From positions 1 to 64,000 of IMG/VR virus record IMGVR_UViG_3300017957_001843: a stretch of DNA of 64,000 bases, one strand, 5' to 3'. This document shows, in pieces, positions 1-31,056 of the stretch (its first letter is position 1; every line of letters begins with the position of its first letter). Below the pieces are notes generated by a model. The model was not told where the DNA came from. It saw only the letters and a list, made by a program, of their open reading frames with translations, and searched no databases. The DNA comes from a virus. The translations under genes were made by a program, and so were the position numbers.

Positions 1-458
1 GAGGTTAATGAATATTCAAAATCAACTTCTCCACCGTCAATATATGTAATATATTCATTTGAGTACCAAACTTTAGGACCGTGTGCTCCGAAACTTTCTA
101 AGTATTTTTCTTTTACAGGAGTATAATTTTTAAAAAACCGTGTCAACGTTCCTTCATTACAATTATATACAGGAATGTTAAATGTACAATCTCTTTGTGT
201 ATCAATATGTGCCGGTAATTGCCCTGGTTCAAATTTCATAAGTTTTATAAAATCTTTTAATTTAGGATGTTTATCTCTTATATCTTGTAGGTACTTATAG
301 TCTTTGACTTGTAATACATTTTCATCTGTATACCTTAATGCTAGTGGTGCCGGAGCATCTATCCAGTCTTGAGTAATCCATTGTGTTCCTAATTCAACAA
401 AGAAATTTATATCAATATCACTTTTACTAAACTCTTTTACATATTGATTATGAATCAT
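1..458 (-). CDS. Putative 2OG-Fe(II) oxygenase-like protein, 3' end runs off the window (not in the ORF track)
   Basis: Manual translation from the ATG at 458 (ATGA overlap with the upstream stop) gives MIHNQYVKEF...GQLPAHIDTQRDCTFNIPVYN..., open to position 1. HxD followed by an 'NIP' strand, as in the neighbour 455..973. Confidence 0.65.
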   Translation of the reverse strand, partial: MIHNQYVKEFSKSDIDINFFVELGTQWITQDWIDAPAPLALRYTDENVLQVKDYKYLQDIRDKHPKLKDFIKLMKFEPGQLPAHIDTQRDCTFNIPVYNCNEGTLTRFFKNYTPVKEKYLESFGAHGPKVWYSNEYITYIDGGEVDFEYSLT

Positions 459-973
459 ATGATTAATCCTTTTAATTTTTTATTATATATTTCGCAAACT
501 TCTTCGTATGGTTCTTCAAAACACAACTGAAAAACTATTCTAGGACTTTTGTCGTTGTATTCTACGTTATGAAAACACCCACCAGTATTTAATATTGCTC
601 CGCAATTATGGTATCCTACACTACAAACAAAATTTTCATTATCATCATAAAACATAGTTTTACTTGCAGTTGGTGCTAATGGAAAATTAATTACAGTTTG
701 CCTAGGCATATATAAATTTTCATATTCGTTATAACGATTACGATCTTTATGTATTTTACTTCCTGTTTCTGTTACACGTAATAATTGGCACACACAATTT
801 ATACCTTTAGGTTTAAAATGCTGAATTGTACTAGGTAGTTTAAAAAAACTTATTTTATAACTTATGTCTACAAATGCATCTGTGGCTAGTGCATACTCAA
901 GTAACGAATCTCTTGTTACTTGTGATAAAGCATATTGTACTTGTTTATAATATGGATCATAACTCTGTAGCAT
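455..973 (-). CDS. Putative 2OG-Fe(II) oxygenase-like protein
   Basis: KIHKD (HxD) ... VINFPL ... FHNV (distal His) ... PRIVFQL (2OG-binding Arg) pattern. Confidence 0.65.
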   Translation of the reverse strand: MLQSYDPYYKQVQYALSQVTRDSLLEYALATDAFVDISYKISFFKLPSTIQHFKPKGINCVCQLLRVTETGSKIHKDRNRYNEYENLYMPRQTVINFPLAPTASKTMFYDDNENFVCSVGYHNCGAILNTGGCFHNVEYNDKSPRIVFQLCFEEPYEEVCEIYNKKLKGLII

Positions 974-1796
974 ATTCTTTCTTTTTATTTTCGTATTTTT
1001 CTTGTAACAGCTTTGTTACTACTCCAGTTTTTTGTGTTTCTGTAATGCCGCCGCTTGAACTAGTAATAAAAATTTCATCAGCATTATGAAACATTGTTGT
1101 TGTAATAGGCATACGTTTAAAAGTTATATTATTTTCTTTTGCTATATCTTCAACGACACTCATAGTAATACCTTTAAGAACATTATTATTTGCTGTTTTA
1201 ATTACTCCGTCTTTGACAATGCCAACGTTAAATCCAGGGCCTTCTGTTACAAATCCATTTGTATCTACTAAAACTGTAGTGTCGTACTCTTCTGGTTTAT
1301 TTCGCTGACTCATTGTAAGTTCAATCCAGGCCATATTCTTATATTGTTGACCATAGTAATCATCGTTAACACGATTTGTATCTTGATCTAAGTATAATTT
1401 AACTTGCGGATTTTTTGCAATAGGATAACTAGGTTTAATATACATTGCAAAATGTGTAGGACAATTTTCTAAATCTCTTGGATTTCCGCTGGGAGGAAAA
1501 CCTCTCCAGATAATAAACCATACAAACGCATTGTCAATAGGATTACGCTTTGCAAGTTCTTTTATAATTTCTAAAGGATCTACATCAGGTATAGTTAGTC
1601 CATAACGTTCTGCACTGGCTTTAAATCTTCCTAAATGCCTATCATAACAAAATGCTTTGCCGTCATAGACCGGCATAACATCGTAAGTAGCATCACAGTG
1701 TATAAAACCAAAGTCAAGTATAGAAGGGCCTATATCTCTTAATGGTAAGTATTCACCGTTTTTATATGCAATTAAATCTAAAACATCATTCATCAA
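957..1796 (-). CDS. PLP fold-type IV aminotransferase, (R)-selective amine transaminase-like
   Basis: LDFGFIHCDATYDV, HLGRF, FVWFIIWRG, catalytic Lys in YKNMAW, TEGPGFNV, VLKGIT, ADEIFITSSSGG. Confidence 0.85.
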   Translation of the reverse strand: MMNDVLDLIAYKNGEYLPLRDIGPSILDFGFIHCDATYDVMPVYDGKAFCYDRHLGRFKASAERYGLTIPDVDPLEIIKELAKRNPIDNAFVWFIIWRGFPPSGNPRDLENCPTHFAMYIKPSYPIAKNPQVKLYLDQDTNRVNDDYYGQQYKNMAWIELTMSQRNKPEEYDTTVLVDTNGFVTEGPGFNVGIVKDGVIKTANNNVLKGITMSVVEDIAKENNITFKRMPITTTMFHNADEIFITSSSGGITETQKTGVVTKLLQEKYENKKKEYATEL

Positions 1797-2043
1797 AATG
1801 TACCTTTCGTAATTGCGGATCGTCAGGCAATTTTTGCTTCAGTGTTTTCAAACGATTTATTCTCCATTCAAGGAGTTTAAAATCTAACACCCAAGGAAAA
1901 ATTGCGTGTATTAAACTTCCTATTGTTATAAAAAGTAAAAAGAAAAATTCCCCTATCGCTAAACGGAAATGCCACCAATAGCCAGCGTCTTCGCGACCAG
2001 CTTTAGCCTTAGCTTCTTTAAGGTGGGCAAAATTAAACCACAT
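1786..2043 (-). CDS. Small DUF6356-like protein with a hydrophobic segment
   Basis: HL...GYWWHFRLA...LIHAIFPW pattern. Overlaps both neighbours in the operon. Confidence 0.55.
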   Translation of the reverse strand: MWFNFAHLKEAKAKAGREDAGYWWHFRLAIGEFFFLLFITIGSLIHAIFPWVLDFKLLEWRINRLKTLKQKLPDDPQLRKVHFDE

Positions 2044-2587
2044 ATTTGTTCTGTATCCTTTCTCTACGTTTTTTATATTCTTGAATATTTAATTTCCATA
2101 AATTTTGTTTTGTATAATATAATTCTATTTCTCCTTTGTCTTCTAATATACCTTGCTTTGCTAATAATCCCATTAATCGATGATTCCTAGCAGCTTTGCC
2201 GTTAGAATGATCGTTATATAGATTTGTTGTCATATAAAGATTATCACTTGGACACCAATCTATAAACAAAGGTATAAACTCTCTCTGTGTTAAACTATTC
2301 CAATCTCCTTTACCTAGACCTTTAAAACTATCTGTATGAGGTAATTCGCATCCTCTAAAAAGTATTCTCCAAGCATCATTAGAAACTTCAGGTAAAGGAT
2401 GACATCCTGCAACTGCTATAATTTCTTCATCTCTAATTGCACACCAATATTCTCCTTGTGTTTTACACCAAATTAATTTCATTGCACGAAAGCTAGAGTT
2501 ATTTTCATATCCTAAATCTTTACATTTATTACAAAATACTTGTAACATATCAAGATGTTTATCTTGTATTTTTTCTATCTTAATCAT
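2033..2587 (-). CDS. Putative GNAT-fold acyltransferase
   Basis: YWCAIRDEEIIAVAGCH ... AWRILFRG beta-strand pattern; 184 aa. Weak motif evidence only. Confidence 0.45.
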   Translation of the reverse strand: MIKIEKIQDKHLDMLQVFCNKCKDLGYENNSSFRAMKLIWCKTQGEYWCAIRDEEIIAVAGCHPLPEVSNDAWRILFRGCELPHTDSFKGLGKGDWNSLTQREFIPLFIDWCPSDNLYMTTNLYNDHSNGKAARNHRLMGLLAKQGILEDKGEIELYYTKQNLWKLNIQEYKKRRERIQNKYVV

Positions 2588-3198
2588 AGTACTTGAAAAT
2601 TATGAACAGTATTTAAAAAAGTACGTTCATTTAATTTTACATTAATTACTAACCAATAACTAGGGTCTTTTTTTGTATTAAAAAGTTCGTGTTCTTTAGC
2701 AGTATCAATAAAATACAATCCTCCAGATTCCCAATTTAATAACTTTCCTTCTAAAATAAAGTTACACGGATTAACTAAAGGAGATATTAATCTAAAACTA
2801 TCTAGCTTTGTTCCTCTAAAATCTCTATGTTTAGGAAAAAATCCGCCAGGTCCTAATTTTAAAATGTGTGTTCTAAATATATCTCCCTTCCAAGGATCTA
2901 ATATTTTTTTCAAATCTTCATTTTCATAAACCGGAGTTGGGACACAAAAATCTTCTTCTTCGTATGTTGTACCATTTTCTTTATTATATTCGTGTAAACT
3001 ATCTAGATCAGGGATACCACTTATTCCGCCATCTAGACTAGTAATACTCAGTCCTTGCCTATTATTCGGTAAACGTCTAGGGTTATACTGTACGTACTCA
3101 AAGTTTTCTTCAGTCCAATCTACAATTTTGCGGCCAGGAGCATAAAACTTTAATTGGTTAACTTTGCCATAAGTTACAAGGGTGTTATAGAGTTGCAT
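2584..3198 (-). CDS. 2OG-Fe(II) oxygenase, Asp/Asn beta-hydroxylase-like
   Basis: LKLGPGGFFPKHRD (HxD), FRLISPL, GGLYFIDTAKEHELFN (distal His). Confidence 0.75.
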   Translation of the reverse strand: MQLYNTLVTYGKVNQLKFYAPGRKIVDWTEENFEYVQYNPRRLPNNRQGLSITSLDGGISGIPDLDSLHEYNKENGTTYEEEDFCVPTPVYENEDLKKILDPWKGDIFRTHILKLGPGGFFPKHRDFRGTKLDSFRLISPLVNPCNFILEGKLLNWESGGLYFIDTAKEHELFNTKKDPSYWLVINVKLNERTFLNTVHNFQVL

Positions 3199-3253
3199 AC
3201 TATTATATATCGTATTTTTCAGTCAGTACTAGCCGTATTGAGTTATATACACA

Positions 3254-3261
3254 TATAAATA
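3254..3261 (+). promoter_or_regulatory. T4 late-type promoter motif TATAAATA, 4 nt before the GTG start at 3266
   Basis: Exact TATAAATA in the divergent intergenic region. Confidence 0.55.
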
Positions 3262-3265
3262 AATT

Positions 3266-4255
3266 GTGATTATAGAATCGATTTCAAAAAATAACTGGTT
3301 TACAGACTACACTGTACAATGGCGTCCAATTATGATGTGCAATTATGATTGTAGTTATTGTAGTCCGACAAGTCATTTAGCAATTGAAAAACGAAGCATA
3401 CCTACTGCTAATGATCTTATTAAAGCAGCAAAAAATCTTAGAAACGCAATTCCTAAAGACAAAGAAACAATGGTTGTTATTACGGGTGGAGAGCCATTTT
3501 TAATCAAAGATATACACTTATGGTTAGAATATTTGTTAGACAATAATTTTTATATAATGATATTTACAAATAGTAGTCTAAATGAAGAAACTTACAAAAA
3601 GTGTAAAAAAGTTTTTTCAAATAAAAAATTACTTTTTAAAATGAGCTTTCATCCTGAATTTGCAGACATAGATAAATTTGCAACACTGGCAAATAATATA
3701 CAAAAATTAGGTGCAAAAGTAGAAATACGTGCAATGTTAGCAAATAAAATGTTTGATAAGATTGATGAATTAGAATCTAAAACAAATGTAGATTTTATTA
3801 GACTTCCTGTTTTTCCGTTATATAATAAAAAAGAAAATAAAGTAAACCCTATAAACAGTAGCAGCAGAAACTTAAAAGACTATTACCAAACAGCTGACGA
3901 CGGAAAACTAAACTATTTTACAAAAGACGAATTACAAAAACTTAAACAATACGAAGATGTTGACCCGCCAGATTACTTAAAAATAAAAATAAACGATAAT
4001 ATAGATTACAGTGCAGATAAAATAGTTTTGCAAGGAAAAAATATTTTTAAAGGTTGGAAATGTAGTGTTGTACAACGAAAACTGGTTATTAAACCAAATG
4101 GTGATTTACACTATGGTATATGTAATAACGAAGGAGTTTTTGGAAATATCTATGATGAAAATTTAGATCTATTTTCCAAAAAATTTACCACCTGTAATGC
4201 TCCGCTTTGTGGAGTAATAGAAGAAGTTATGTTAGAAAAATATAAAGATGTATAA
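3266..4255 (+). CDS. Radical SAM protein with C-terminal Twitch/SPASM-like Cys domain
   Basis: CNYDCSYC (CxxxCxxC), ITGGEPF, C-terminal WKC...GIC...TTCNAPLC. Confidence 0.9.
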   Translation: MIIESISKNNWFTDYTVQWRPIMMCNYDCSYCSPTSHLAIEKRSIPTANDLIKAAKNLRNAIPKDKETMVVITGGEPFLIKDIHLWLEYLLDNNFYIMIFTNSSLNEETYKKCKKVFSNKKLLFKMSFHPEFADIDKFATLANNIQKLGAKVEIRAMLANKMFDKIDELESKTNVDFIRLPVFPLYNKKENKVNPINSSSRNLKDYYQTADDGKLNYFTKDELQKLKQYEDVDPPDYLKIKINDNIDYSADKIVLQGKNIFKGWKCSVVQRKLVIKPNGDLHYGICNNEGVFGNIYDENLDLFSKKFTTCNAPLCGVIEEVMLEKYKDV

Positions 4256-5345
4256 TAAAGTAGAACACATACACTTAGAGCCAACTAGCGAATGTAACGC
4301 TAGATGTCCAATGTGCGAGCGCACATATGAAACTACATTAGAAACACACCCTTGCTTAAAAGTCACAGAGTGGAAAAGCAACGATCTAGATAAAATCTTA
4401 GATGATCCGTTTTTTAAAGATGTAAAAATTATACATATAAATGGAAACTATGGAGATATTGTAAGCCATTCTCACCCTAAAGAATTGTTAAATGTCATTA
4501 TAAAAAGAAATATTGCATTGCATATCAATACCAATGGCGGAGCATTAAATACTGAATTTTGGAAATGGTTAGGCTCGTACGAGAGAGCACTAGTTGAGTT
4601 TGATATAGACGGTTTAGAAGATACTCATCATTTGTATAGACGTAACACAAGATTTGATATTGTAATAAAAAATGCAAAAGCATATATCGATGCCGGAGGC
4701 AAAGCTAAATGGGCTATGAATGGATTTAAGCACAATGAACATCAGGTTGAAGAATGCAGAGAATTAGCTAAAGATTTAGGCTTCAGTCAGTTTTACTACA
4801 GACCTTCAAGTAGGTGGATGTGGTCAAGCAAACTAGATATTTTAGATAAAAATTACAATTTTGCATACAGTATCGAGCCTGCAAAAGAATTCCAAGATCT
4901 TGCAAGTAAATTACCTTACTACAAATCAAGACCTCCTGAAGCATATAAAAACAAAATATACAATAAACGTGTTCCTTTAGTAGAAACTAACTGTAATGTA
5001 AATTGTAAGGTTATAGGTGAAAAAAGTATATACAAGCTAGAGTCAGTATACATAAGTTCTGATCAGCGGTTATGGCCGTGTTGCTGGATGCACCTTGACG
5101 ATATTAGATCAGACTGGAAGGAAAATAAAGGCGGATTTGAAAGTTTGTTTAGAGACAAGGATAGAGATTTTAATAATTTGTTAAAAAATTCTGTTTCTAA
5201 AATGTTAGAAAACGGATTGTTTAAACGTATAAGCGATAGTTGGAATACTAATAATGTTTTATACGAGTGTGCAAGGACCTGTAAAGATAAAAATAACTTT
5301 CAAATGCAGACATCAGTAAGCTCTCACAACGATCTTAAAAAGTAA
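4248..5345 (+). CDS. Radical SAM protein with C-terminal Twitch/SPASM domain (paralog of 14369..15592)
   Basis: CNARCPMC, GNYGD, NTNGG, DIDGLEDTHHLYRRN, WPCCW, CARTC. Confidence 0.9.
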   Translation: MYNKVEHIHLEPTSECNARCPMCERTYETTLETHPCLKVTEWKSNDLDKILDDPFFKDVKIIHINGNYGDIVSHSHPKELLNVIIKRNIALHINTNGGALNTEFWKWLGSYERALVEFDIDGLEDTHHLYRRNTRFDIVIKNAKAYIDAGGKAKWAMNGFKHNEHQVEECRELAKDLGFSQFYYRPSSRWMWSSKLDILDKNYNFAYSIEPAKEFQDLASKLPYYKSRPPEAYKNKIYNKRVPLVETNCNVNCKVIGEKSIYKLESVYISSDQRLWPCCWMHLDDIRSDWKENKGGFESLFRDKDRDFNNLLKNSVSKMLENGLFKRISDSWNTNNVLYECARTCKDKNNFQMQTSVSSHNDLKK

Positions 5346-6810
5346 AACTTTTTATAATTTTTACTACTTCTTCATTTTGATCTTCATATTCTTCTAAATA
5401 TTTACGTCCTATGTTAAAAGATTTTCCGCTCACAGTTGGTTTTTCATATAAACCTAGCTCTATTGCTCTATTTAAAAATATAAAATGTCTTTCTATTCTT
5501 TTTTTGTAATCGTTTTCTTTACTTTCCCATTCAAAATAATTAGTGATATTATGTATGTCATAATCTTCTGAATTGATATATACCGGTGTACCTGGAATCA
5601 TAATCATAGGATGGTCAGAAGCAACAGTTTGAACAACTTCAGGATATTCTGCAAACATCTCTAATATTTTAAGTGTGTCTTGAAAATCTTCTTCTGTTTC
5701 TGTTGGAAATCCGACAAACATTAACGGAGTAAATTTTAAACCTACTTTTTTCATTTCTTCTAAATGAAATCTAACTGCTTCGTTAGAAAAAGGCTTACCT
5801 ATTTCTTTTCTTATTTTTTCACTTCCGGATTCTATCCCTACACTAACTGTCTTTAACCCAGCTGCTATCATTTTAGAAAATATTGTAGGATCTGTTTGCC
5901 GTATTTCTCTAAATATAAATTGTCCGTTGAACTTAAATTCGACTCCAGTTTCTTCTGTAAACTTTGCTATTACTTCTAACATTTTTACAAATTCTTTTTG
6001 ATTACCATTGATTAAACTGTCTGTGAATCTAAACCTTTTAATATTATGTTGGTGATACAAATGAATCATTTCATTTGCTATTCGTTCTCCTGATTTCCAT
6101 AAAAATTTACGCCATAACAAAGGTACATTACAAAATGCACAGTTTCTAACACATCCCCTTGATCCGCTTATATATAATAGAGGATTATTTTTGTATAAGC
6201 TAAAATCTATTCCAGTATAATCTGCATAAGGAATAGTTTCTCGATCAAAATTATTATCAAAATCATAATTGTTTATTCCAGGATAATCTTTAACTCCTTC
6301 TAGATACTTCACAATAGAAATTTCGGCATCACCTGATATAAAATCGTCAATACGTTTCATTCTTTTTAATCTATCTATTACTTCTACTACACCGTCGTGA
6401 GATGTAGTCAAGGCTGGGCCTCCTAAAACAATCTTAACATTAGGATTCTTTTCTTTTATAACCTTTGTTACTAAAAAAATACTAGGAAAACTCCAGTATG
6501 AAAAAACAGTTATTCCTATTATCTTTGGTTTTTTTGGAGCAATATATTTTTTATAGTACCGATTTATTTCTTTAGTATACTGTCTTTCTATTTTTAAAAC
6601 AAGATCTTTGTCTATTAATGTAGTGTCAGATACATTCCAAATATATCCCATTTTTGTATCAATAGTTTGTTTATAAAACCAAGCATTAAAATCTAAAAAT
6701 TCACTTTTATACCCAGCAGATTTTACACAACCATTGAGCTGAGCAACTGCAAGAATTGGACCTTGCACTTCTAATTTAGGAACTGTCATAAAGAGTATAT
6801 CAAGTGCCAT
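5335..6810 (-). CDS. Cobalamin-binding radical SAM protein (class B methyltransferase-like)
   Basis: N-terminal B12-binding-type domain (IIGITVFS, KIVLGGP, GDAE), SRGCVRNCAFC, FTDSLING, VGIESGS, VGFPTETEEDF, PGTP. Confidence 0.88.
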   Translation of the reverse strand: MALDILFMTVPKLEVQGPILAVAQLNGCVKSAGYKSEFLDFNAWFYKQTIDTKMGYIWNVSDTTLIDKDLVLKIERQYTKEINRYYKKYIAPKKPKIIGITVFSYWSFPSIFLVTKVIKEKNPNVKIVLGGPALTTSHDGVVEVIDRLKRMKRIDDFISGDAEISIVKYLEGVKDYPGINNYDFDNNFDRETIPYADYTGIDFSLYKNNPLLYISGSRGCVRNCAFCNVPLLWRKFLWKSGERIANEMIHLYHQHNIKRFRFTDSLINGNQKEFVKMLEVIAKFTEETGVEFKFNGQFIFREIRQTDPTIFSKMIAAGLKTVSVGIESGSEKIRKEIGKPFSNEAVRFHLEEMKKVGLKFTPLMFVGFPTETEEDFQDTLKILEMFAEYPEVVQTVASDHPMIMIPGTPVYINSEDYDIHNITNYFEWESKENDYKKRIERHFIFLNRAIELGLYEKPTVSGKSFNIGRKYLEEYEDQNEEVVKIIKSFTF

Positions 6811-6814
6811 AATT

Positions 6815-7696
6815 TTATTTTATTTCTACCTTTACTAAGTTTCTTTGTAAAATAACTTTTAAAAAATCTTCTGATATGTTTTTTTGTAATATACCTAATG
6901 GAATATGTCCTATACTGTTTTTCGGATCGTGAATATTAATCCCGCCTTCTACCATCCATTTTTTACAAGCTTTAATTTCTTTTTCTTGGTTATAGATTGT
7001 ATTTGCTTGTAATTGAAAAAAGAAACTAGGACTATATTCTTTCAACACTACAGCAGTTTTAGGTGTTCTCCCACTTTTCATAGTTTTTAAAAAATCTTCC
7101 CCCAATGCATTATAATTTAAATATACTACATAAGGTTCTATATAAGGACTATATAGACTGTAATCTTTTTCATCAAACGCTATTTTTTTAACATTAGGAA
7201 CTTTTGATATAGGATCTACAACTCTAAATCTTACCCTCGGTGTTAAGTATTTATTACTAAGTTCGTCAGCTAATTTTTCAGAATGATGTATATGATCATT
7301 AAAGTTATCTCTGAGGCGTGTTGCTTCCTTTTTTGATAAATTACCGTTAGATATCCAATCATTATTAGCACTAATAGATTCGTATATAAAATGTAATTCG
7401 CTAAGATCGTTTATACTGAAAGAGACCTTTCCGGCATCTATTGTATATTTAAAAGGTACTGTATCAGGTATATGACTATTGATATGTGTAATTGTGTTGC
7501 TTAATTTTTTAAATTCAGTGCCATACTCAAATCCGCTTAAGGTAAGCTGATATTCATAATTAGAATTATTAATAACTTCTTGGAGTTGTTTACACCATTT
7601 ATCAATAAAATAATTTTCAAATAATTTTATTTCAATAATATTTTTATATACTTCTTTATCTATATTTTTTTCAAAATGTAAGTTTAATACTTTCAT
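6815..7696 (-). CDS. Hypothetical protein (paralog of 11611..12444)
   Basis: 293-aa ORF in the operon. LSELHFIYE, FNDHIHHSE, LGEDF and GHIPLG mirror motifs of 11611..12444. Confidence 0.7.
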   Translation of the reverse strand: MKVLNLHFEKNIDKEVYKNIIEIKLFENYFIDKWCKQLQEVINNSNYEYQLTLSGFEYGTEFKKLSNTITHINSHIPDTVPFKYTIDAGKVSFSINDLSELHFIYESISANNDWISNGNLSKKEATRLRDNFNDHIHHSEKLADELSNKYLTPRVRFRVVDPISKVPNVKKIAFDEKDYSLYSPYIEPYVVYLNYNALGEDFLKTMKSGRTPKTAVVLKEYSPSFFFQLQANTIYNQEKEIKACKKWMVEGGINIHDPKNSIGHIPLGILQKNISEDFLKVILQRNLVKVEIK

Positions 7697-8379
7697 TTTA
7701 CTCCAATCCTCATAAATCTTGTATACTTAGATAATTTAAGTTCCCCTTGATAGTATACATTCTGCATAGGAGTAGTTCTACTAAAATCGTCTAGATCTAT
7801 GCAACAATTTATGTGTTCTGGTAAATCGAAGTAATTATTAGTTTGTAATATTACAATTGTTCCTGTTGGTATGTTTTCATACCATTGTTTAAAATTTTCA
7901 ATGTGTTCACAACTAGTATTAATAATAGTATCAGGCATTTCTGTAAGATTCAAACTACTTCCATCGGCTCTGTAGGTAATGTGTGTAGTAGGATATTCCA
8001 TATCAAGAATATCTATAGTGCTTGCTTTAAACTGCCAGCCATCCATTACCCAAGGTCTATTCATATTATCAGCTATAGATGCACAACTACTATCAATATC
8101 AAAGCTACGTATTTTTTCAAATTTATCTTTTGCACGTTCAAACATTAAACTAGCAAGTGTACCATACCAACCCGCACATATAAAAACAGTACCTAAATTA
8201 GATGGCAAATTTTCAACAAGCCATAGTTTACTTTCTAATTGTCCTAAACTAAAAGCATCTACCATAGCAGTTTCACTTTCAGGAAACATATTAAGAGTAC
8301 GCTTTAGTTGTGAAACTACTTTATTTTCAGGATAAAGATATTCTAATCCATTAAGTAGATTAACTGTATTGCTCATCAA
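7693..8379 (-). CDS. Class I SAM-dependent methyltransferase-like protein
   Basis: VFICAGWYG (motif I), IRSFDID (acidic motif II), IINTSCEH. Confidence 0.7.
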   Translation of the reverse strand: MMSNTVNLLNGLEYLYPENKVVSQLKRTLNMFPESETAMVDAFSLGQLESKLWLVENLPSNLGTVFICAGWYGTLASLMFERAKDKFEKIRSFDIDSSCASIADNMNRPWVMDGWQFKASTIDILDMEYPTTHITYRADGSSLNLTEMPDTIINTSCEHIENFKQWYENIPTGTIVILQTNNYFDLPEHINCCIDLDDFSRTTPMQNVYYQGELKLSKYTRFMRIGVK

Positions 8380-11593: not shown

Positions 11594-11610
11594 AGCATAA
11601 GGTATTTATA
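11582..11610. promoter_or_regulatory. Overlapping opposite late-type motifs: TAAATA on + (11582-11587) and TATAAATA on - (11603-11610)
   Basis: Sequence tTAAATActgcatagcataaggTATTTATAatg, between divergent genes only 17 bp apart. Confidence 0.5.
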
Positions 11611-13585: not shown

Positions 13586-13593
13586 TATCTTAC

Positions 13594-23128: not shown

Positions 23129-23972
23129 AGCCTACCTCGTCAATTATTCTATTAAGACTAAATTTGTTCATTACGTGTATACTTTGTCCTTTAGTACGCA
23201 AAGGAGTATATTCTCCAACATATTTGTCTTTTTCTACTAAAAAAATAAATTCAGTGTCATTTAGTTTCCATAAAATGTCTCTGTCTGTTGTATATAAATG
23301 TCTACCAGGAAGTTCAGAAATAAAACTACCTTTAGAAAATCCGTTCATTATATGTCCAGCAATGCTAAAAGCAAAATCATTTCTAAATAATGTGCTTGCT
23401 AGTTGATACACTGTACAATAATGATTCCAATTTTCCTGTATGTGTTTTATTAAATCAAAATATATTTTGTTCAATTTAGTTTTTCTAAAAAATACAACTG
23501 TTGCCCAATAAAAATCTATACTATAATCGCTTATATGATCAAACTCTCTTTCATCTCTTACTTTTGCTATGTCATCGGATTTTCTAAACATTTGTAAATC
23601 ATTTGGTGAATCAAAACAATTTGCAAGTAGACTATTAGAAATAATGTAGTCTGTGTCTAACAACAAAGTTTCTTCATATGGAGATAAGTCATATGCATCT
23701 ACTCTATAGTTATTTTTAAAATTTAATTTTTTGCTAGTAAGAGTGCCATCATAATAATCACGTTTGTTAGGTCCATCGTCTCGATAGTCTATTTTTATAA
23801 TATTATCAAAAGTATCTTCAGGAAACTGTTCTTCAAGATACAAGACACTGTCTGTAATAATACTTACAGGTATATTAAGATATTTTTTAATTCTATTTGC
23901 AAGGAAAACTGCCTGTTTTACATAATCAATAGTATCATTATTTCTTGCAATTAACAATGCCCCTTTAGTCAA
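23121..23972 (-). CDS. GT8-like glycosyltransferase (tandem paralog of 22292..23128)
   Basis: MTKGALLIARNN, VSIITD, SPYEETLLLDTD (DxD), RNDFAFSIA, IHVMNK. Confidence 0.75.
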   Translation of the reverse strand: MTKGALLIARNNDTIDYVKQAVFLANRIKKYLNIPVSIITDSVLYLEEQFPEDTFDNIIKIDYRDDGPNKRDYYDGTLTSKKLNFKNNYRVDAYDLSPYEETLLLDTDYIISNSLLANCFDSPNDLQMFRKSDDIAKVRDEREFDHISDYSIDFYWATVVFFRKTKLNKIYFDLIKHIQENWNHYCTVYQLASTLFRNDFAFSIAGHIMNGFSKGSFISELPGRHLYTTDRDILWKLNDTEFIFLVEKDKYVGEYTPLRTKGQSIHVMNKFSLNRIIDEVGYD

Positions 23973-24321
23973 TTTCTAAACCCACTAATCCTTCTACAGA
24001 TCTATTCTTTTTTAGATTTTGATATTCAACAAAATAGTTGTTAGATGCGCTAAAATATGTATCTAGTATTTCAGAATTGAATTCTTCAATATTATCTATT
24101 TGTAAAGGTATACTATTATCATCAACTAAAATTATTTCATCTTGCTTAAAAGCTATCATAGTACTACAAAAATTAATAAGTTCTTTAGTAACAGTAAACT
24201 GACATCCGTTGTAAAAGAAAATTAAATCTTCTAGATATTTCTCTTTCAGTAAACGCTTTTGGTTATTTAATGTAACCATATAGTTAGAAAATTCAATTGC
24301 TTTTTCTAATCTTTCGTCCAT
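23965..24321 (-). CDS. Hypothetical protein, first gene after the sigma70-type promoter
   Basis: 118-aa ORF with an AGGAG ribosome-binding site upstream. Confidence 0.75.
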   Translation of the reverse strand: MDERLEKAIEFSNYMVTLNNQKRLLKEKYLEDLIFFYNGCQFTVTKELINFCSTMIAFKQDEIILVDDNSIPLQIDNIEEFNSEILDTYFSASNNYFVEYQNLKKNRSVEGLVGLEID

Positions 24322-24375: not shown

Positions 24376-24386
24376 GAAAGATCTGA

Positions 24387-25106
24387 CTACAGATTTCTTT
24401 GGTGATCAGTAAACTTGTTACCTTGTGTGTCCTCGCCCCGCCAATACCTTTTTCCTACACCGTGAGGTTTTTGCGTGTCAGGACCGCCACGTTCTTTACC
24501 TGCGTTTATCATTTCTTGTTGCTCGTTTTTTACTTCTTCAATTGCATTATAATTTTCAGCAAGATCAATTTCAAAATTGTCTACAAAATATCTAGGTATT
24601 GGTAACACTGCACTGATTATATCACCTTTCTTGACATTTACTTTTACATTAGGAGTTAATATTTTTAAATTAAATGTAAAATCTCTGCGTAGATTGTCTG
24701 TTTCTACAACAGCAGTCATATTAGAAAGATTAGGTGTAAAATAATTAGGCGGATTAATCACCATTAAATTTATGCCTTTGGGTGTTTTGAAAGTGAATCT
24801 ATTTTGTACCGTAATCAACCCACTACCAAAATGCGCACTAATATGTTGTTTATCTGTACCTTCACTATCTATAATTACATCATTAGGAGCATCGCCGCCA
24901 TTCCAAATCGCACTAAAATTAGTTGTGCTTTTTATAGCAAATCCATACTGATTGCCTATTACTACTGGTAAACAATGTACTACGTGTTTATTGATCCAAT
25001 TTCTAGTTTTTTTGCCCTTGAGAGGTTCTACAATTTCTAAGTAATCGTTTTTATGTAAATCATTTTCTGGTACTATCAGTATTTTATTTTGAGGTACATT
25101 AATCAT
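24387..25106 (-). CDS. DUF6065-like protein
   Basis: HCLPVVIGNQYGF, HFGSGLIT, FKTPKGINL...PPN, VVETD, FTFNLK motifs. Confidence 0.65.
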   Translation of the reverse strand: MINVPQNKILIVPENDLHKNDYLEIVEPLKGKKTRNWINKHVVHCLPVVIGNQYGFAIKSTTNFSAIWNGGDAPNDVIIDSEGTDKQHISAHFGSGLITVQNRFTFKTPKGINLMVINPPNYFTPNLSNMTAVVETDNLRRDFTFNLKILTPNVKVNVKKGDIISAVLPIPRYFVDNFEIDLAENYNAIEEVKNEQQEMINAGKERGGPDTQKPHGVGKRYWRGEDTQGNKFTDHQRNL

Positions 25107-25626
25107 CTTTTGTTAAAAATAAAACTATTGTATATCTTTCTCCACTAGTAACTTCACTGACTCCGTGTAGATACTCTTTTGTTCCTTTGAACTGTACAAG
25201 AGTGCCCGGAACAGTCTTAGGTTCAATGTTTTGATTTGGAAAAAATATTTGTCCGCCTTTGTAATCGCTATTTAGATAGATCAAAACACTATAATGTCTA
25301 TTTGGATACGGATGCGGAGATCCGTCTAGATTTTCACAATCTGCGTGAGGTGGATCTAGTTTATCTCCTTTGCGCCACCTAACAATTTGACAAGTTTCTA
25401 CAAAACTTTTTTGTTTTTCATTTGCTTCTATCAATTTTACAATACGATCTTGGATATCTTTTATTTGTGCTAAAACATTTGGATTTGTTATTAAGTTGTA
25501 GTGTATAAATTTTTCACTCCAATGATCATTTGTAACAACCCAATCGGAAGTTGTTTTTGCATAGTTACAAATATCAGTGGTAGTTTGTTCGTCTAAAAAA
25601 TTATTGTCAATGTAAATATCCTGCAT
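25099..25626 (-). CDS. 2OG-Fe(II) oxygenase, prolyl 4-hydroxylase-like
   Basis: QIVRW, PPHAD (HxD), YSVLIYLNSDYKGGQIFFP, HGVSEVTSGERYT (distal His and 2OG-binding Arg). Confidence 0.85.
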   Translation of the reverse strand: MQDIYIDNNFLDEQTTTDICNYAKTTSDWVVTNDHWSEKFIHYNLITNPNVLAQIKDIQDRIVKLIEANEKQKSFVETCQIVRWRKGDKLDPPHADCENLDGSPHPYPNRHYSVLIYLNSDYKGGQIFFPNQNIEPKTVPGTLVQFKGTKEYLHGVSEVTSGERYTIVLFLTKDD

Positions 25627-25656
25627 ACATTATATATTAGTATATGCAGGATATTT
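25614..25656 (-). promoter_or_regulatory. Perfect 14-bp inverted repeat covering the start codon of the P4H-like gene
   Basis: AAATATCCTGCATA (25614-25627) and TATGCAGGATATTT (25643-25656), 15-nt loop. The ATG at 25626-25624 lies in the stem. Confidence 0.75.
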
Positions 25657-25668
25657 TATATAATTTGA

Positions 25669-28600
25669 CTAAAACGAAGGTAAACCTCCCCCGGTAATAG
25701 TGAAGGTTGTGCTTGCACTTCCGGCTCCTGTTTGTGCAACACCTACTGAATAACTTCCTACTGGGAATGTTGCGTCTATAAAATCGTTACCACTAGAATT
25801 AGTAGTTCTAGATCCACTTGTATAGAAAGTACCATTTCTGTATACAGCATAAGAATAACTTGTATTAGGTATGCCTCCTGTTACACTAGCAATAGCCGTA
25901 GTACCAACCACGGATACAGATATCCCAATCTGATAGGACGGTGGAGGTGGCGGCGGTGGTGGTGGCGGAGGTGGTGGTGGCGGAGGTGGCGGAGGTGGCG
26001 GAGGTGGTGGTGGTGGAACCGAAGCCGTCACCGTTATACTGTCCGATGCTAATGTTGTTTTTGATCCAAACCAATCGTTCACCAAATATATTGTAAAATT
26101 ACCAGTAGAACTAAATGTTTGTGGTAAACTACCTGGATTTTGTGTTGGTGCAAACGCTCCTATATAACTACCGTCTCTATAATATGCAAGATATACATCT
26201 GTTCCGTTTGACCAACTCCAAGATGCAGTAAATGTAGTACTATTAACAACTCCACTAGAAGGCGAAATAGCATAACTTCCACTAGCTGGTGGTGGTGGTG
26301 GCGGTGGGGGTGGCGGTGGGGGTGGCGGTGGCGGAGGTGCAGCCACCACTGAAAGATTTGCAGTTACTGACACACTTTGGCTTTGGCCGTTTTCGTCTGT
26401 ATATGTCACAAATGCGCCGCCGACATATGTTCCTGTTTGAGCTAATATGACACTAAGAGAATGAGCACTTGTAGTTGTGCTTGATGATGTAACTGATCCA
26501 CTAGGATTTCTAATATATGTGTAACTACTATTTCCAGTAAATCCTAGATTAGGCTGGTAATAGAACGTACCTGTGTCGCCAACATAATGAGGTGCAGATG
26601 ATGTTACAGTTACACTCGGTGTTGGTGCAGCTACAGGTGCATTTGCAATAGGAATAGTATCTGATGCAGTTGCATAACTTGTAGTTCCACTAGAGTTTGT
26701 GTAAGCTGTTGCAATACTTGCTCTCCAATTGCCTGTGCCGCTTAATACTTCGTGAAGTAGTGTTCCACTAGCAGCAGTAGAATTTGTAACTGAAGTGCTC
26801 GAGCTCGGTGGATAAATTGCTGCATAAGAGCTGTTTCCTCCTCCTCTAGAAAAATTAGCAGCTATCGTGTCGCCTATTATACCCGATGGTTCATCAAATG
26901 CTATAGAGGGCGTCGGAACAACCACTGCTGCACTTGCTGTCATTGTTGCATCTGCACCTGTTGCTAAATTAGGATCATTTCTGTTAAAAACAGCTATAGA
27001 TGCTGTATATGTTCCTACGACACTAGCAGTACCAGAATCAGATCCACTATTTTGTGTGCTATTATAGATCTGCTGGCCATTAGGGTCAGTAACAGATACG
27101 ATTGTACCAAATATTGTTTCGTTATTATTTGCATCCCAACTCATAGTGTAATTTGTAGAATTAACTGTACCTGTAGTTGGAGACCAACTTATGCTAGGAG
27201 TGTTTGGGCTAGGATTTGAAGGTGTTGTACTTGTATCTCCTACTGTTGTTGATGTTGTAGCTACTGCACTTCCACCGCTGGTTGCACTTACTACTACCTG
27301 GAATGATTCTTGCCCTTCTGTAGTTTGATCAGCTGTAGGAGATATTGAAAATTGTCCTGTATTATTATTAATAGTAAATGAACCACTTGTAGAACTAAAA
27401 TCTGCACTTGAAGTTGTGAGGTTATTTATACGCCAATATAGTGAAGTTCCGTTTGGTATTCCTGATGTTGTAACTGTATATGTTCCAGAACTACCTTCAC
27501 TAATTACATTACCCGCAGGTCCTGTAATCGAATAACTAGGTGCTGCTGTTGATACTGATGCTGTCCTAGTGTTGCCTGTAGAACTAAAGTTTAATGTTGC
27601 AGCACAATTAGGATAAACAGAAGTTGCTATAGCTACTAAACTTGTATTACCTAGTGAATTTGTATTTCCGCTACCTACAATTTGTGAAAAACCAGAAGTA
27701 TTTGTAATAGTAAATGTATCAAACGGTGTAGCATTAGTCACATATATTCCTACTTCGCCGTTTATTCCGGGATCTATGGCTACCATTTGCACATTTTCAT
27801 TCACTGCTGCTGTAACCGTAAAACTTATATTTGCTCCTGTATCAAGGAAATTTGCAGGAGATAGGTTATAATTTCTTGTACCCGGTGTATTAATAACAGC
27901 AGATAGAGACCAATTACCGTTGGCATCAAAATTGTCTGCGAGGGTGTCGCTTCCTGATATAGTAAATGAACTGTTTGGTCTGCCACCTGTTGCGCTAAGT
28001 GTAACTGTATCGCCTGTAACAGGATTAGTAGGAGATACAGATAACGAAACTGTATACGTATCAGTAACTGTATAATTTAACGTAACACTACCACTATTGT
28101 CATCTGTAAATGTAATACTGTAGTTGCCTGCGGGAGAACTTTGTACTTGTATACCTGCTGCAACTCCTGACGAGTTAAAATTACCTAAATTAAAACCATT
28201 GGCATAAAAATTTCCATTAGGAAATCCACCGCTCAACGAAACTTCTCTATTTGCTCCAGTAGCACCTGTTGTAATTGTAAAATTATTTCTATCCAATTGA
28301 AGATTAGATGTTACAGTCTGTGAAGCACTAGCTGTTGAAGGATTTCCTGTACTAAAAGTTGCTACCGCATTATATGTTCCAGGAGAAATGTGGTTACGTG
28401 ACCAAGTTCCTAAACCACTTGAATTTAATGATATAGTATTAGACTGATTAATCAGCAAAGGACTTGTGTGAGAAGTGTTTATAGTAACTGATTGGAAGGG
28501 ATCTCCAGAAACAGAAATGTTAAATGGCGTATTAGCTCTAATAGTAGAAGGCATAGTAATACTATTATTAGGATTGTCATTGTCTAATAAATCTAAAGAG

Positions 28601-31056
28601 GCACTAGCACTGTCTCCGCTGTCTCTGTGCGTCCAAGTAAATGTGATAGTTTTGTTGCCGTCATTTATGCTATCATCTTCAGTCTGCTTAACTATGCCAA
28701 CATACCCACTATTTACTCCTCCGCTTTGTGTTTCGCTCCCTGTCAAACTTGCATATGTAGATGTAAAATCATTAGAATTAACCCCACTAATACTCCAATC
28801 AAAAATATCACCAGAACTATAACCAGTAGTAGCGATCTGTGCAATAAATACTCCGCCTTCTGTGATGCTAGTTATAGATTGTGAATTCTGGGTAAATGAA
28901 GGAGTGATACTTTTTGCAACAGGCGTTGTTGAAGTGTCTTGTATTGTTGCAAATTTAGCATTTGAAACATTATTAGGTCCACTTACTCGTGTCCCGAAAA
29001 TTTCTGATCCTTCAGTTGTGGAATCTGCAACAGTTGTTCTAGTAAATGTGTATGTACCGTCGCCTGTGTTTGGTAGATTAGTTATTGTAACTGCTGCTGA
29101 GCCGCTCATTACACCGCCAACAAAGTCTGCTGCAACAGCATTTGTTCCACTAGTTGCATTTACATTAGACCAACTTACGTTTCCTGTTGATGATGACCAA
29201 TTACTTACTGTACCTGTATATGTGTATGTGTTATATGTAGTTTCGTTACCAATAGTCGGTGATGTGTAACCAGTATCAACAGATAAATCATTGTTTACTG
29301 TGGGTATGTTATTGTCAACGCCTGCGCCCGTCCAATAAATTTTATAACTTTGACCATCACCTTCAGCTTTTAGTGCAGTAAAATCAAAAGTTCTATTTAC
29401 AGCACGAAAATCAAGTACACTTTGAGGGATAACACTAATAGGAACTGTCAATGATGCAGGACTTGCACCTAAACTATACGTTTTAGTTGCAGATCCGGAT
29501 GTTGAACTTATACCGTCTACTGAAACATCCCAAGCCGTTGGTCTGCCAGTTTCTTGTACTGTAACATTTCCGCTTGCATTGCCTGTGCTTGTAAGAGTAA
29601 TATTAGTAGTAGAGCTTGTTCCTATTTGCACATCGCCTATATCCCACGCTGTTGATTGTGTTAAGTATGAACTAGGTGAAACATCAAATGTAAACACTTG
29701 CGGAGGAGGTGGTGGCGGTGGTGGCGGTGGTGGCGGAGGTGGCGCAACACTAGTATCATTTATTGTCATACTAATGCTATCTTTTCCATTATCTAAACTT
29801 AGAGTAAGTGTTTCAGACCCTTCTGTAATTTGATCTGCTACAGGACTTATTACAACTGAATTAGTTGTACCTACAACAAAAGATCCTTGTAACGGAATAC
29901 CTAAATCAGCCTGTGAAGTTCCTGTAATAGTATAAGGAATTACTGTACCATTAGATACGTTACTAGTAGACAATGTTATGCTTGCGCTACTGCCTTCGTT
30001 TACATTACTTGCAGACCTACTCAAATTGTAAGTAGCAACAGGCGGCTGCGATGCACTTAGCTCAACAATGTTACTTCCTACAGGTACATCTGCTGATCCA
30101 TATACCACTGTGTTATAAGTCTGCCCGTTAATATCTACAGATCCGTTTGGTATAAGTAATTGTGCGCTACTGGTCCAATTACCAAATACAGGCTCATCTA
30201 TACTGAATCCGCCTGGACTAGGATCAGCAAAATTTACTTTAAATTGTATAGTCCTTGAATCTACATCTAGTGCATACAATTCATATTGACTTAAATTATA
30301 AGTGCCTCCTGCATTTTTACTGTAGCAAAGTTGGTAGCTACTACTAAGGTTAGTTGCACCAACATTTTGTCCATTACCTACGCCGGCATTGCTAAAAGTT
30401 CTATCACCTTTAAAACTTACAACTCCCATACTTTGCATTTCTGTTTGCCAGTCCACAGTTTTTTGTTGTGATCCTGTATAACTTACACTTGCACTAAATC
30501 TTACCTCACCCCCTGCGTTAAAAAAATGACGGCGAGTTTCGTCTGTAGGGAAAGTAATCGTAAAAATATGGTTAATAAAACTAGTCCATTGACCATTTAC
30601 AGAATTTAAATATGTGCTGGTAATTTGATTGCCACTGGAATTATTCAAATCAGCAACATTTGCTTGTCCTACTGTATCTATCTCAAATCTATCATTTTCG
30701 ATTTGAGTCATTAAATTTTCTAAATTTTGTATATAAGTAAGTTCTACAAGCTCAGCGTCATTGGGATTGTTGACAAAGTCTCCTACAACAAAATCATTTA
30801 CTGAAACATTTCCAGCACCTAATTGGTGTGCTCTACATCTAATTAAATCTATGTATAAGTCTTCGTATTGTTGTGCAGTGATTTTATCACTAGAAGGAGG
30901 CGCAACAGATCTTGTTCCGTCTACATTTTGAGATGCATTAAGTGTTTCACCATACCCAAAGTCGGGTGCTGCTGTTAAAGATGTCCCTAGTACTTTTTCT
31001 AGCCTATCCTGTAGGCTGTTAAAGCGAGACGCTAAAATCGTTGTAGTTGTTGCCAT
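25669..31056 (-). CDS. Large virion fibre/appendage protein (1795 aa) with Ig/Calx-beta-like repeats and three polyproline tracts
   Basis: N-terminal ~300 aa paralogous to 31113..36068 (RRHFFNAGGEVRFS); repeated 'ADxxTEGxE' Calx-beta-like motifs; Ser/Thr-rich; P14, P17 and P26 runs; follows the tail-fibre genes. Confidence 0.8.
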   Translation of the reverse strand: MATTTTILASRFNSLQDRLEKVLGTSLTAAPDFGYGETLNASQNVDGTRSVAPPSSDKITAQQYEDLYIDLIRCRAHQLGAGNVSVNDFVVGDFVNNPNDAELVELTYIQNLENLMTQIENDRFEIDTVGQANVADLNNSSGNQITSTYLNSVNGQWTSFINHIFTITFPTDETRRHFFNAGGEVRFSASVSYTGSQQKTVDWQTEMQSMGVVSFKGDRTFSNAGVGNGQNVGATNLSSSYQLCYSKNAGGTYNLSQYELYALDVDSRTIQFKVNFADPSPGGFSIDEPVFGNWTSSAQLLIPNGSVDINGQTYNTVVYGSADVPVGSNIVELSASQPPVATYNLSRSASNVNEGSSASITLSTSNVSNGTVIPYTITGTSQADLGIPLQGSFVVGTTNSVVISPVADQITEGSETLTLSLDNGKDSISMTINDTSVAPPPPPPPPPPPPPPQVFTFDVSPSSYLTQSTAWDIGDVQIGTSSTTNITLTSTGNASGNVTVQETGRPTAWDVSVDGISSTSGSATKTYSLGASPASLTVPISVIPQSVLDFRAVNRTFDFTALKAEGDGQSYKIYWTGAGVDNNIPTVNNDLSVDTGYTSPTIGNETTYNTYTYTGTVSNWSSSTGNVSWSNVNATSGTNAVAADFVGGVMSGSAAVTITNLPNTGDGTYTFTRTTVADSTTEGSEIFGTRVSGPNNVSNAKFATIQDTSTTPVAKSITPSFTQNSQSITSITEGGVFIAQIATTGYSSGDIFDWSISGVNSNDFTSTYASLTGSETQSGGVNSGYVGIVKQTEDDSINDGNKTITFTWTHRDSGDSASASLDLLDNDNPNNSITMPSTIRANTPFNISVSGDPFQSVTINTSHTSPLLINQSNTISLNSSGLGTWSRNHISPGTYNAVATFSTGNPSTASASQTVTSNLQLDRNNFTITTGATGANREVSLSGGFPNGNFYANGFNLGNFNSSGVAAGIQVQSSPAGNYSITFTDDNSGSVTLNYTVTDTYTVSLSVSPTNPVTGDTVTLSATGGRPNSSFTISGSDTLADNFDANGNWSLSAVINTPGTRNYNLSPANFLDTGANISFTVTAAVNENVQMVAIDPGINGEVGIYVTNATPFDTFTITNTSGFSQIVGSGNTNSLGNTSLVAIATSVYPNCAATLNFSSTGNTRTASVSTAAPSYSITGPAGNVISEGSSGTYTVTTSGIPNGTSLYWRINNLTTSSADFSSTSGSFTINNNTGQFSISPTADQTTEGQESFQVVVSATSGGSAVATTSTTVGDTSTTPSNPSPNTPSISWSPTTGTVNSTNYTMSWDANNNETIFGTIVSVTDPNGQQIYNSTQNSGSDSGTASVVGTYTASIAVFNRNDPNLATGADATMTASAAVVVPTPSIAFDEPSGIIGDTIAANFSRGGGNSSYAAIYPPSSSTSVTNSTAASGTLLHEVLSGTGNWRASIATAYTNSSGTTSYATASDTIPIANAPVAAPTPSVTVTSSAPHYVGDTGTFYYQPNLGFTGNSSYTYIRNPSGSVTSSSTTTSAHSLSVILAQTGTYVGGAFVTYTDENGQSQSVSVTANLSVVAAPPPPPPPPPPPPPPPPPASGSYAISPSSGVVNSTTFTASWSWSNGTDVYLAYYRDGSYIGAFAPTQNPGSLPQTFSSTGNFTIYLVNDWFGSKTTLASDSITVTASVPPPPPPPPPPPPPPPPPPPPPPPPPPSYQIGISVSVVGTTAIASVTGGIPNTSYSYAVYRNGTFYTSGSRTTNSSGNDFIDATFPVGSYSVGVAQTGAGSASTTFTITGGGLPSF
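25939..26016 (-). repeat. Polyproline tract, 26 Pro codons
   Basis: 78 nt of mixed CCA/CCG/CCT codons. Confidence 0.95.
26287..26337 (-). repeat. Polyproline tract, 17 Pro codons
   Basis: 51 nt of mixed CCN codons. Confidence 0.95.
29701..29742 (-). repeat. Polyproline tract, 14 Pro codons
   Basis: 42 nt of mixed CCN codons. Confidence 0.95.

Follow-up and report, generated by a model that had tools for sequence, protein, structure and literature searches.

A polyproline fibre-like gene with adjoining prolyl-hydroxylase-like and DUF6065 genes in an uncultured jumbo myovirus

The chlorovirus PBCV-1 encodes a small collagen-type prolyl 4-hydroxylase (P4H) that acts on the virus's own proline-rich repeats, and hydroxyproline (Hyp) is O-glycosylated on polyproline-II substrates in plant extensins and in Chlamydomonas. 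We compared these and other described systems with a locus in 64,000 bases of viral DNA (the window; bases 1-64000 of the 75,243-base IMG/VR viral contig IMGVR_UViG_3300017957_001843, ~20% complete by estimate), where a gene for a long fibre-like protein with three polyproline linkers is followed by genes for a prolyl-hydroxylase-like 2-oxoglutarate (2OG)/Fe(II) oxygenase and a DUF6065 protein, and then by genes resembling glycosyltransferases (GTs) and by radical S-adenosylmethionine (SAM) genes. A preliminary description of this DNA had proposed that the phage hydroxylates the linkers and that the GT and radical SAM genes build a tailored glycan on the resulting Hyp. The gene arrangement it observed is largely confirmed, and the region contains two separable things: a cassette (A) of fibre, hydroxylase-like and DUF6065 genes, and a lineage-wide operon (module B). 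Comparison with relatives and with other viral loci inclines us, by a modest degree, to the reading that the phage hydroxylates the proline linkers of its own fibre.

With the PBCV-1 P4H (5c5t), the window has in common a virus-encoded small collagen-type P4H-like enzyme and virus-encoded proline-rich sequences (profile match at 3.1e-6). PBCV-1 is a virus of eukaryotic algae, whereas the window phage has a bacterial host, its candidate substrate is fibre-like and carries pure polyproline, and the enzyme gene is directly coupled to the substrate gene and always paired with a DUF6065 gene of predicted dUTPase-like fold. A virus-encoded P4H with its own proline-rich substrate was therefore known; the bacteriophage fibre and the constant, uncharacterised partner are new. 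Hyp-O-glycosylation in plant extensins and Chlamydomonas (Cr-P4H, 2jig) likewise combines a polyproline-II substrate with a P4H of the same superfamily (2.2e-4), but no Hyp-specific GT was found in the window, its GT genes do not co-vary with the hydroxylase, and its setting is cytoplasmic rather than secretory. The Skp1 pathway of Dictyostelium and Toxoplasma (PhyA, the GT60 enzyme Gnt1 and a GT8-like terminal galactosyltransferase, 6mw5) shares a cytoplasmic P4H and a GT8-like fold with the window, which in contrast has no PF11397 gene and whose GT8-like genes also occur in hydroxylase-less phages. The best profile matches of the window enzyme, Bacillus anthracis P4H (3itq, 5hv0) and human prolyl 3-hydroxylase 1 (P3H1, 8k0e), have the same catalytic residues; the window enzyme differs in having only 175 residues and no peptide-substrate-binding domain.

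Phage GT genes beside virion genes are also described for mycobacteriophages (Freeman et al. 2023, cited in PMC12619734), a precedent for phage-encoded virion glycans. There, other GT families and hosts are involved, the glycans are carried on C-terminal Ser/Thr tails of the capsid and tail tube proteins and, unlike in the window, radical SAM enzymes and a hydroxylase are absent. For a large aquatic phage lineage, the 'moraphage' group, four putative core GTs have been reported without a target (PMC12619734). Full-text literature searches returned no paper about DUF6065, nor any that describes hydroxylated prolines in a phage virion protein, in agreement with the earlier statement that no Hyp pathway has been characterised in phages. 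Environmental viromes abound in phage 2OG/Fe(II) oxygenases and 'prolyl 4-hydroxylases'; the window gene stands out by its adjoining candidate substrate. Its relatives moreover provide a natural gain/loss experiment, which turns an annotation puzzle into a testable question: is a receptor-binding appendage hydroxylated on proline?

The fibre-like protein (25669..31056; all features are on the minus strand unless marked otherwise) has 1795 residues, is multi-domain and rich in Ser, Thr and Asn (14%, 14% and 8.5%), and has homologues in contigs L007-L031. Translation bears out the pure proline tracts reported for it, which form three inter-domain linkers: P14 (residues 439-452, 29701..29742), P17 (residues 1574-1590, 26287..26337; P19 at the same place in L027) and P26 (residues 1681-1706, 25939..26016), the last lying just before the final domain (P25 in L027 and P36 in L031). 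Each tract is encoded by a mixture of CCA, CCG, CCT and CCC codons: what is kept is the protein sequence, not a simple repeat of nucleotides. The gene lies within a run of tail-fibre-like genes, and the N-terminal ~300 residues of its product are paralogous to a neighbouring 1651-residue protein (31% identity, E 9e-35). The label 'virion protein' given previously thus fits a real protein with real tracts, for which position and the shared N-terminal domain suggest a place in a fibre or elsewhere in the virion.

RNA-library contigs from two salt-marsh metatranscriptomes map to the fibre and oxygenase genes, and two of them (25598-25936 and 25601-25868) span the fibre 3' end, the 42-bp gap and the oxygenase start. 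These contigs are weakly indicative of co-transcription, as DNA carry-over is possible. Over the GT region such contigs are patchy, a pattern that, in contig data, cannot be taken as a sign of lower expression.

Several further features of the fibre region were recorded. A Pfam scan of the fibre found no domain besides a spurious match to PRIMA1, rejected as it covers the proline run alone. The fibre contains 58 N-x-S/T sequons, compared with 39.7 +/- 5.2 in shuffles of its own composition, which may reflect glycosylation or mere repeat structure. The neighbouring 1651-residue fibre-like protein (31113-36068) matches Pfam Gly_rich_2 and, in residues 612-810, has several runs of 5-7 glycines. 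Short-read assemblies in public databases end at the stretches that encode polyproline (25937-26027 and 29698-29745), so that such fibres will often be truncated or split in metagenome assemblies and variation in tract length is not assessable from them.

The oxygenase gene (25099..25626, 175 residues) starts 42 bp past the fibre stop on the same strand, and its reported P4H-like character holds up. The protein matches PF13640 (2OG-FeII_Oxy_3) at 40.3 bits against a cut-off of 27, and as a single sequence it finds human P3H1 in the PDB at 1.4e-6 and bacterial P4H weakly. A family profile built from 40 members on viral contigs matches P3H1 at 1.8e-13 over the C-terminal half and Bacillus anthracis P4H at 3.5e-10 over nearly the full length, with the PBCV-1 and Chlamydomonas P4Hs at the values given above. 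Among distinct PDB sequences, P3H1 and P4Hs of bacterial, viral and algal origin take the first eight places; hydroxylases of the PiuC type and lysyl hydroxylases rank after them, with E values above 0.002. Residues H94, D96, H154 and R164, which correspond to the H-x-D...H iron triad and the basic 2OG residue, are invariant among the 40 sequences, and the catalytic residues align with the P3H1 core. The profile matches and invariant residues together indicate an enzyme that resembles prolyl hydroxylases of the collagen type and seems equipped for catalysis; neither its substrate nor its 3- versus 4-regiochemistry can be read from sequence. The PHROG label 'DNA endonuclease' (phrog_2297) was rejected for this protein, since the Pfam and PDB evidence outweighs it.

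The next gene (24387..25106, 239 residues) overlaps the oxygenase gene by 8 nucleotides and, as had been proposed, encodes a DUF6065 protein (PF19541 at 4.7e-37, 128.2 bits against a cut-off of 26.6, covering profile positions 15-231 of 236). An AlphaFold2 model based on a 41-sequence alignment has a predicted local distance difference test (pLDDT) score of 90 and resembles 14 trimeric dUTPases (VIA Z 8.0-10.0, root-mean-square deviation 2.5-3.7 A over 102-123 aligned residues, Foldseek E 3e-4, identity 7-18%). At the sequence level, a motif-III-like stretch is the only one of the five dUTPase motifs that aligns with a viral dUTPase, weakly, at E 0.5. The model thus predicts a dUTPase-like beta-barrel fold, and we do not call the protein a dUTPase. 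Its atlas neighbours are mostly viral DUF6065 clusters. Prediction of a complex between the oxygenase and DUF6065 families gave a score of 0.00, which is no answer and evidence neither way.

DUF6065 genes without a P4H-like neighbour are found on sphingomonad, planctomycete and cyanobacterial contigs (L233-L238 and L275-L285), some of them 0.1-0.27 Mb long, and hence the family is not restricted to the pairing with the oxygenase. On a 5-Mb Hyphomicrobiaceae chromosome (L266, 655-9719), a 2266-residue open reading frame (ORF) that contains at least 20 prolines in a row precedes a stop-free frame of ~600 codons to which both profiles, oxygenase and DUF6065, match, maybe a fused form or a prophage copy.

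To compare gene content in the clade, relatives were fetched from viral contigs with the fibre N-terminus and with the oxygenase, and all window genes were mapped on these contigs, which are fragments, 6-20% complete. The oxygenase and DUF6065 genes lie between the fibre gene and module B in three lineages only: the window's own (L025 and L032), L026-L030, and L031. L025 and L032 have 99% identity to the window and the same gene order, their sequence ending short of the tracts; the L026-L030 fibres have P15, P19 and P25 at the window's tract positions, and the L031 fibre has a single P36 before the last domain. The fibres of L007 and L013 (2068 and 2018 residues, 57% identical to that of the window in residues 5-712) have at most four prolines in a row, and these two contigs are without oxygenase and DUF6065 at the locus. 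The same is true of the short-fibre lineages L008-L023, whose fibres of ~330 residues have no polyproline. All these relatives without polyproline keep the remaining module genes as far as each locus extends, and searching the full contigs (21-73 kb) of five of them with the oxygenase profile gave no match, compared with 3.4e-62 for the window's own gene. At the P14 position, L031, L007 and L013 have a linker with a Cys-containing mini-domain instead, and at the P26 position L007 and L013 have a short 'CGYTPPLSY' linker. In a tree of four conserved module genes, L031 groups with L007 and L013 with a support of 1.0, so that polyproline, oxygenase and DUF6065 would, most simply, have been gained together once and lost together once. 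Among all mapped genes, only the oxygenase and DUF6065 genes co-vary with polyproline in the clade.

The fibre genes of L007 (9146-15349) and L013 (9986-16039) also encode repeated inserts of ~40 residues at linker positions, of the form 'TPPAAGT...C...SGG...CGY.PP' with two cysteines, which may be small disulfide-closed knots in a spacer role.

Beyond the clade, a scan of viral contigs seeded with DUF6065 gave 219 confirmed relatives, of which 80 were kept; removal of the window's clade and clustering at ~90% left 43 non-redundant DUF6065 viral loci. The oxygenase is present in 42 of the 43, mostly directly upstream of DUF6065. Of the 30 loci with at least 1.9 kb of upstream sequence, 22 have a co-oriented proline-rich ORF, defined by at least 10 prolines in 20 residues, upstream; such an ORF is downstream in 3 of the 43. 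The tracts of these upstream ORFs are pure polyproline or PPVT, PPIIA, PPPYF and PPPTT repeats, and the proline-rich partners are very unlike one another, which argues for function and not for shared ancestry of the block. The commonest extra neighbour in these phage oxygenase-DUF6065 loci is PF11397, the Gnt1/GT60-type N-acetylglucosamine transferase family (9 of 43), for example within the cassette of L072 (6442-7425, 1e-37).

Module B follows the last fibre gene in the relatives in a common order: a 118-residue protein, two paralogues with a DxD motif, a 205-residue protein, a 306-residue protein and radical SAM genes. The 118-residue protein (23965..24321) is found in all relatives, directly after the fibre gene or DUF6065; the 205-residue protein (21678..22295) is found in relatives, although not in every lineage. 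The two paralogues, A (23121..23972) and B (22292..23128), share ~22% identity and the same DxD by alignment. They had been described as GT8-like, a label that is right at the level of predicted fold. Neither has a Pfam match (even at E 10), nor an NCBIfam or PHROG match, and the pair, being without a PF01501 match, is thus GT8-like by fold and not a Pfam member. A 41-sequence profile of both paralogues finds only glycogenins in the PDB (1.5e-4, via the DxD), and an AlphaFold2 model with a pLDDT of 89 finds glycogenin, LARGE1, LgtC and alpha-1,3-galactosyltransferases (GT8/GT6) by Foldseek at ~1e-6 (template modelling scores 0.38-0.50), the Skp1 glycan galactosyltransferase and WbbM being among the structural neighbours of this putative retaining GT-A fold. 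The DxD residues D106 and D108 are invariant in the alignment. Metagenomes hold over 2500 homologues of the family, none of them named, on contigs of up to 380 kb.

The 306-residue protein (20761..21681), the most conserved of the module, is paralogous to the C-terminal domain of a 562-residue protein encoded at 8360..10048, and these two, previously called GT-A-like, may perhaps have a GT2-like fold. Their family has 1695 cluster representatives; PF00535 is matched by 7 of 55 members (best 0.0011) and not by the window's own protein, the best PDB match of the family profile is Listeria GmaR at E 0.15 over the DxD region, and an hhalign comparison with the GT8-like family gave a probability of 0.3. 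The 562-residue protein has three N-terminal repeats of ~90 residues before its GT2-like domain, and metagenomic members of the family have up to 14 matched stretches and up to 1789 residues.

The same module is found as ORF354-349 in RsoM2USA, a cultured jumbo phage of Ralstonia, where it lies behind structural proteins that were experimentally confirmed (PMC8504454). In the complete genome of this phage (343,806 bp), the profiles of the oxygenase and of DUF6065 match nothing, and a (CCN)10 run is absent. The presence of the module in this phage and in the polyproline-less relatives indicates that the GT and radical SAM genes are not tied to Hyp. Module B probably makes or edits a glycan, and position alone makes virion fibres the best guess for its target.

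The co-variation in the clade, the recurrence of the trio outside it, the prolyl-hydroxylase profile and the catalytic residues support hydroxylation of the linkers by comparison, and this part of the earlier proposal, in which a P4H-like enzyme acts on polyproline linkers, gains the support of comparative genomics. In cassette A, a long fibre-like protein with rods of 14, 17 and 26 residues would be served by a prolyl hydroxylase of the collagen type together with its DUF6065 partner. While late genes are expressed in the cytoplasm of an aerobic host, the oxygenase would use Fe(II), 2OG and O2 to hydroxylate the rod prolines. The product would be Hyp-rich polyproline-II spacers with greater stiffness and hydrophilicity and probably with more resistance to proteases, and DUF6065 would assist through substrate handling or a second modification. 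Module B, the lineage-wide operon behind the last fibre gene, would work independently of Hyp, extended in the window phage by a variable island with more radical SAM genes, a nucleotide-sugar dehydrogenase and others. A bolder version, which we regard as a long shot, makes DUF6065 a protein-modifying enzyme or an obligatory substrate-presenting subunit that, together with the oxygenase, carries out a two-step modification of the proline-rich repeats of fibres, for example hydroxylation followed by nucleotide-dependent transfer onto Hyp.

Several observations weigh against linker hydroxylation, and some of them would fit an oxygenase and DUF6065 that act off the fibre, on a host protein, another phage protein or a small molecule, with adjacency reflecting an exchanged recombination block. 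The within-clade pattern consists of only two evolutionary events and, with three adjacent genes, linkage in a recombining fibre cassette could mimic functional coupling; the contigs being fragmentary, absence from a contig is moreover not absence from the genome. Enzymes of the PF13640 family hydroxylate other proteins too, and bacterial P4Hs act on EF-Tu. In a reverse test, arbitrary viral loci matching (CCN)14 were collected, of which 60 read as at least 12 consecutive prolines in an ORF (37 with at least 2 kb downstream): a P4H-like gene is present at 1 of the 60 and DUF6065 at none. Polyproline in phage proteins thus usually comes without a linked hydroxylase and needs none. The co-occurrence of polyproline and P4H-like gene, suggested as a check in the preliminary description, is exact in the clade. 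On genome and metagenome-assembled genome (MAG) contigs the oxygenase is present in 28 of 57 DUF6065 loci, and many of these pairs have no proline-rich neighbour: such an ORF is near ~7 of the 28 oxygenase-DUF6065 loci versus 1 of the 29 DUF6065-only loci. The association therefore runs from the enzyme pair to proline-rich proteins and not from polyproline to the enzymes, and it is strong in viral contigs and weaker elsewhere. Viral P4Hs and other 2OG oxygenases are, furthermore, commonly filed as auxiliary metabolic or stress genes (PMC11706807). Simple hitch-hiking nevertheless fails to explain why partners so diverse lie upstream on the same strand (22 of 30, compared with 3 of 43 downstream), or why L031 keeps the pair with its last linker alone in polyproline while its sister lineage has lost both that linker and the pair, and we consider action off the fibre unlikely. 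For linker hydroxylation itself, sequences, family and fold assignments and co-occurrence are what we observe, and from them we infer each chemical step as well as the virion location of the substrate; for module B, neither donor sugar nor acceptor can be named.

A glycan on Hyp is a different matter. In the 'extensin-like' model, Hyp on the fibre is glycosylated by the GT8- and GT2-like enzymes and the glycan is tailored by the radical SAM and sugar enzymes. Its attraction lies in the co-oriented, tightly packed genes behind the fibre and in a GT8-like fold that is real at the level of prediction and has the Skp1 glycan galactosyltransferase as a structural neighbour, and the PF11397 genes in 9 of 43 other phage oxygenase-DUF6065 loci indicate that some phages may glycosylate Hyp, although this evidence does not say that the window phage does. 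However, the module has the same order in relatives without polyproline, oxygenase and DUF6065, including the complete RsoM2USA, and beyond the oxygenase and DUF6065 no gene co-varies with polyproline; none of the 29 window ORFs scanned with Pfam matches PF11397, the family of Gnt1-type Hyp N-acetylglucosamine transferases, and the aminotransferase of the region is of the amino-acid and not the sugar type. The tailored Hyp glycan is therefore not borne out, and we rate the full model as very unlikely. Less readily set aside, but still doubtful in our view, is that module B and the region 1..14400 remodel the host envelope (lipopolysaccharide, capsule or receptor masking) or make another product that is not part of the virion. 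Surface-polysaccharide gene clusters are carried by other phages, GT8 enzymes typically extend lipopolysaccharide cores or glycans (with LgtC and WbbM among the neighbours here), and an Asp/Arg-hydroxylase-family gene and a nucleotide-sugar dehydrogenase would suit envelope chemistry. The left part is also variable between near-identical relatives, and many radical SAM genes in marine myophages, up to 12, have been reported as Fe-S-related metabolic genes (PMC5332604). On the other hand, in phages as different as marine ones and a Ralstonia phage from soil, the core module keeps its place immediately after the last fibre gene, co-oriented with it and with stop and start codons that overlap, and Pfam scans of the window ORFs revealed no flippase, polymerase or undecaprenyl-phosphate transferase.

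Linker hydroxylation, if true, would make the fibre-like protein the first bacteriophage virion protein with enzymatically hydroxylated prolines. It would bear on fibre stiffness, reach, protease resistance and perhaps escape from recognition, and it would give a functional context to the widespread DUF6065 family. The two-step role of DUF6065, if true, would establish a new enzyme family that tailors virion proteins post-translationally and give a role to many unexplained 2OG oxygenase genes of environmental phages. That the glycan genes are not tied to Hyp is of consequence as well: the large GT/radical SAM operon stands as a lineage-wide feature of its own, also present in cultured RsoM2USA, where its product could be sought.

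As previously counted, eight window ORFs match Radical_SAM PF04055 with the CxxxCxxC core, six above the Pfam cut-off and two supported by NF033640 at ~300 bits. Four tandem genes (19334..20764, 17932..19341, 16764..17948 and 15589..16767) have an N-terminal twitch domain and match NF033640 at 301-338 bits (cut-off 170); no studied member of NF033640 was found, and its name gives no chemistry. A scan of genome contigs with the 16764..17948 protein gave no relative. The four tandem genes are followed by a radical SAM gene with a Cys-rich C-terminus (14369..15592), and three others lie further left: 3266..4255 (+), 4248..5345 (+) and the B12-binding 5335..6810, which resembles radical SAM methyltransferases, below all curated cut-offs. 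The left part of the window differs even among relatives of 99% identity, L025 and L032 having the 8360 homologue directly after the 14369 homologue, and thus behaves as a variable island. The sugar dehydrogenase proposed earlier is found there at 9978..11126, where PF03721 and PF00984, its N-terminal and central domains, score above their cut-offs and TIGR03026 falls below (148.1 against 189.8 bits), as expected of a divergent or shortened nucleotide-sugar dehydrogenase. The second cupin oxygenase-like gene (2584..3198) belongs to the Asp/Arg beta-hydroxylase family (PF05118, 24.1 bits against a cut-off of 22.6) and lies in the island, far from the fibre. Of the amino-transfer functions suggested for the region, an aminotransferase is real (957..1796), although it is of fold-type IV, the branched-chain or D-amino-acid type, and not of the sugar kind. 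Two ORFs at 12413..14421 are unassigned, the earlier labels GT-B-like (12413..13585) and acyl-transfer being unconfirmed, as is the methyl-transfer label given for the region. PHROGs, Pfam, NCBIfam and PDB sequences gave nothing for these two (13594..14421 and 12413..13585), for 23965..24321 and 21678..22295 of module B, or for 11611..12444, 11108..11593, 7693..8379 and 6815..7696.

Between 63959 and 12413 every gene lies on the minus strand; no gap exceeds 65 bp, and stops and starts often overlap. Promoter and terminator scans of the window gave counts equal to those in shuffled sequence; therefore, transcription units are not inferable from those scans. Megablast of 20000-32000 against GenBank phages gave no match, and near-identical DNA comes mainly from salt-marsh metagenomes. 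The window has 0 tRNA genes and a G+C content of ~26-45%. On its right side lie the genes for a baseplate hub/lysozyme-like protein, for wedge proteins of the gp25-like and gp6-like kinds, for a 5270-residue protein and for several tail-fibre-like proteins. The gp6-like protein has 32-36% identity to its counterparts in the jumbo phages Phosso, Atu_ph07, SCTP-2 and RaK2, and the window is therefore a fragment of an uncultured jumbo myovirus: the region studied forms the distal end of a chain of baseplate and fibre genes in a salt-marsh relative of RaK2, Atu_ph07 and RsoM2USA. Between the baseplate wedge and the fibre genes, the 5270-residue protein is encoded by a single ORF (42284-58096), and its C-terminal ~900 residues are matched in relatives at ~48-51% identity.

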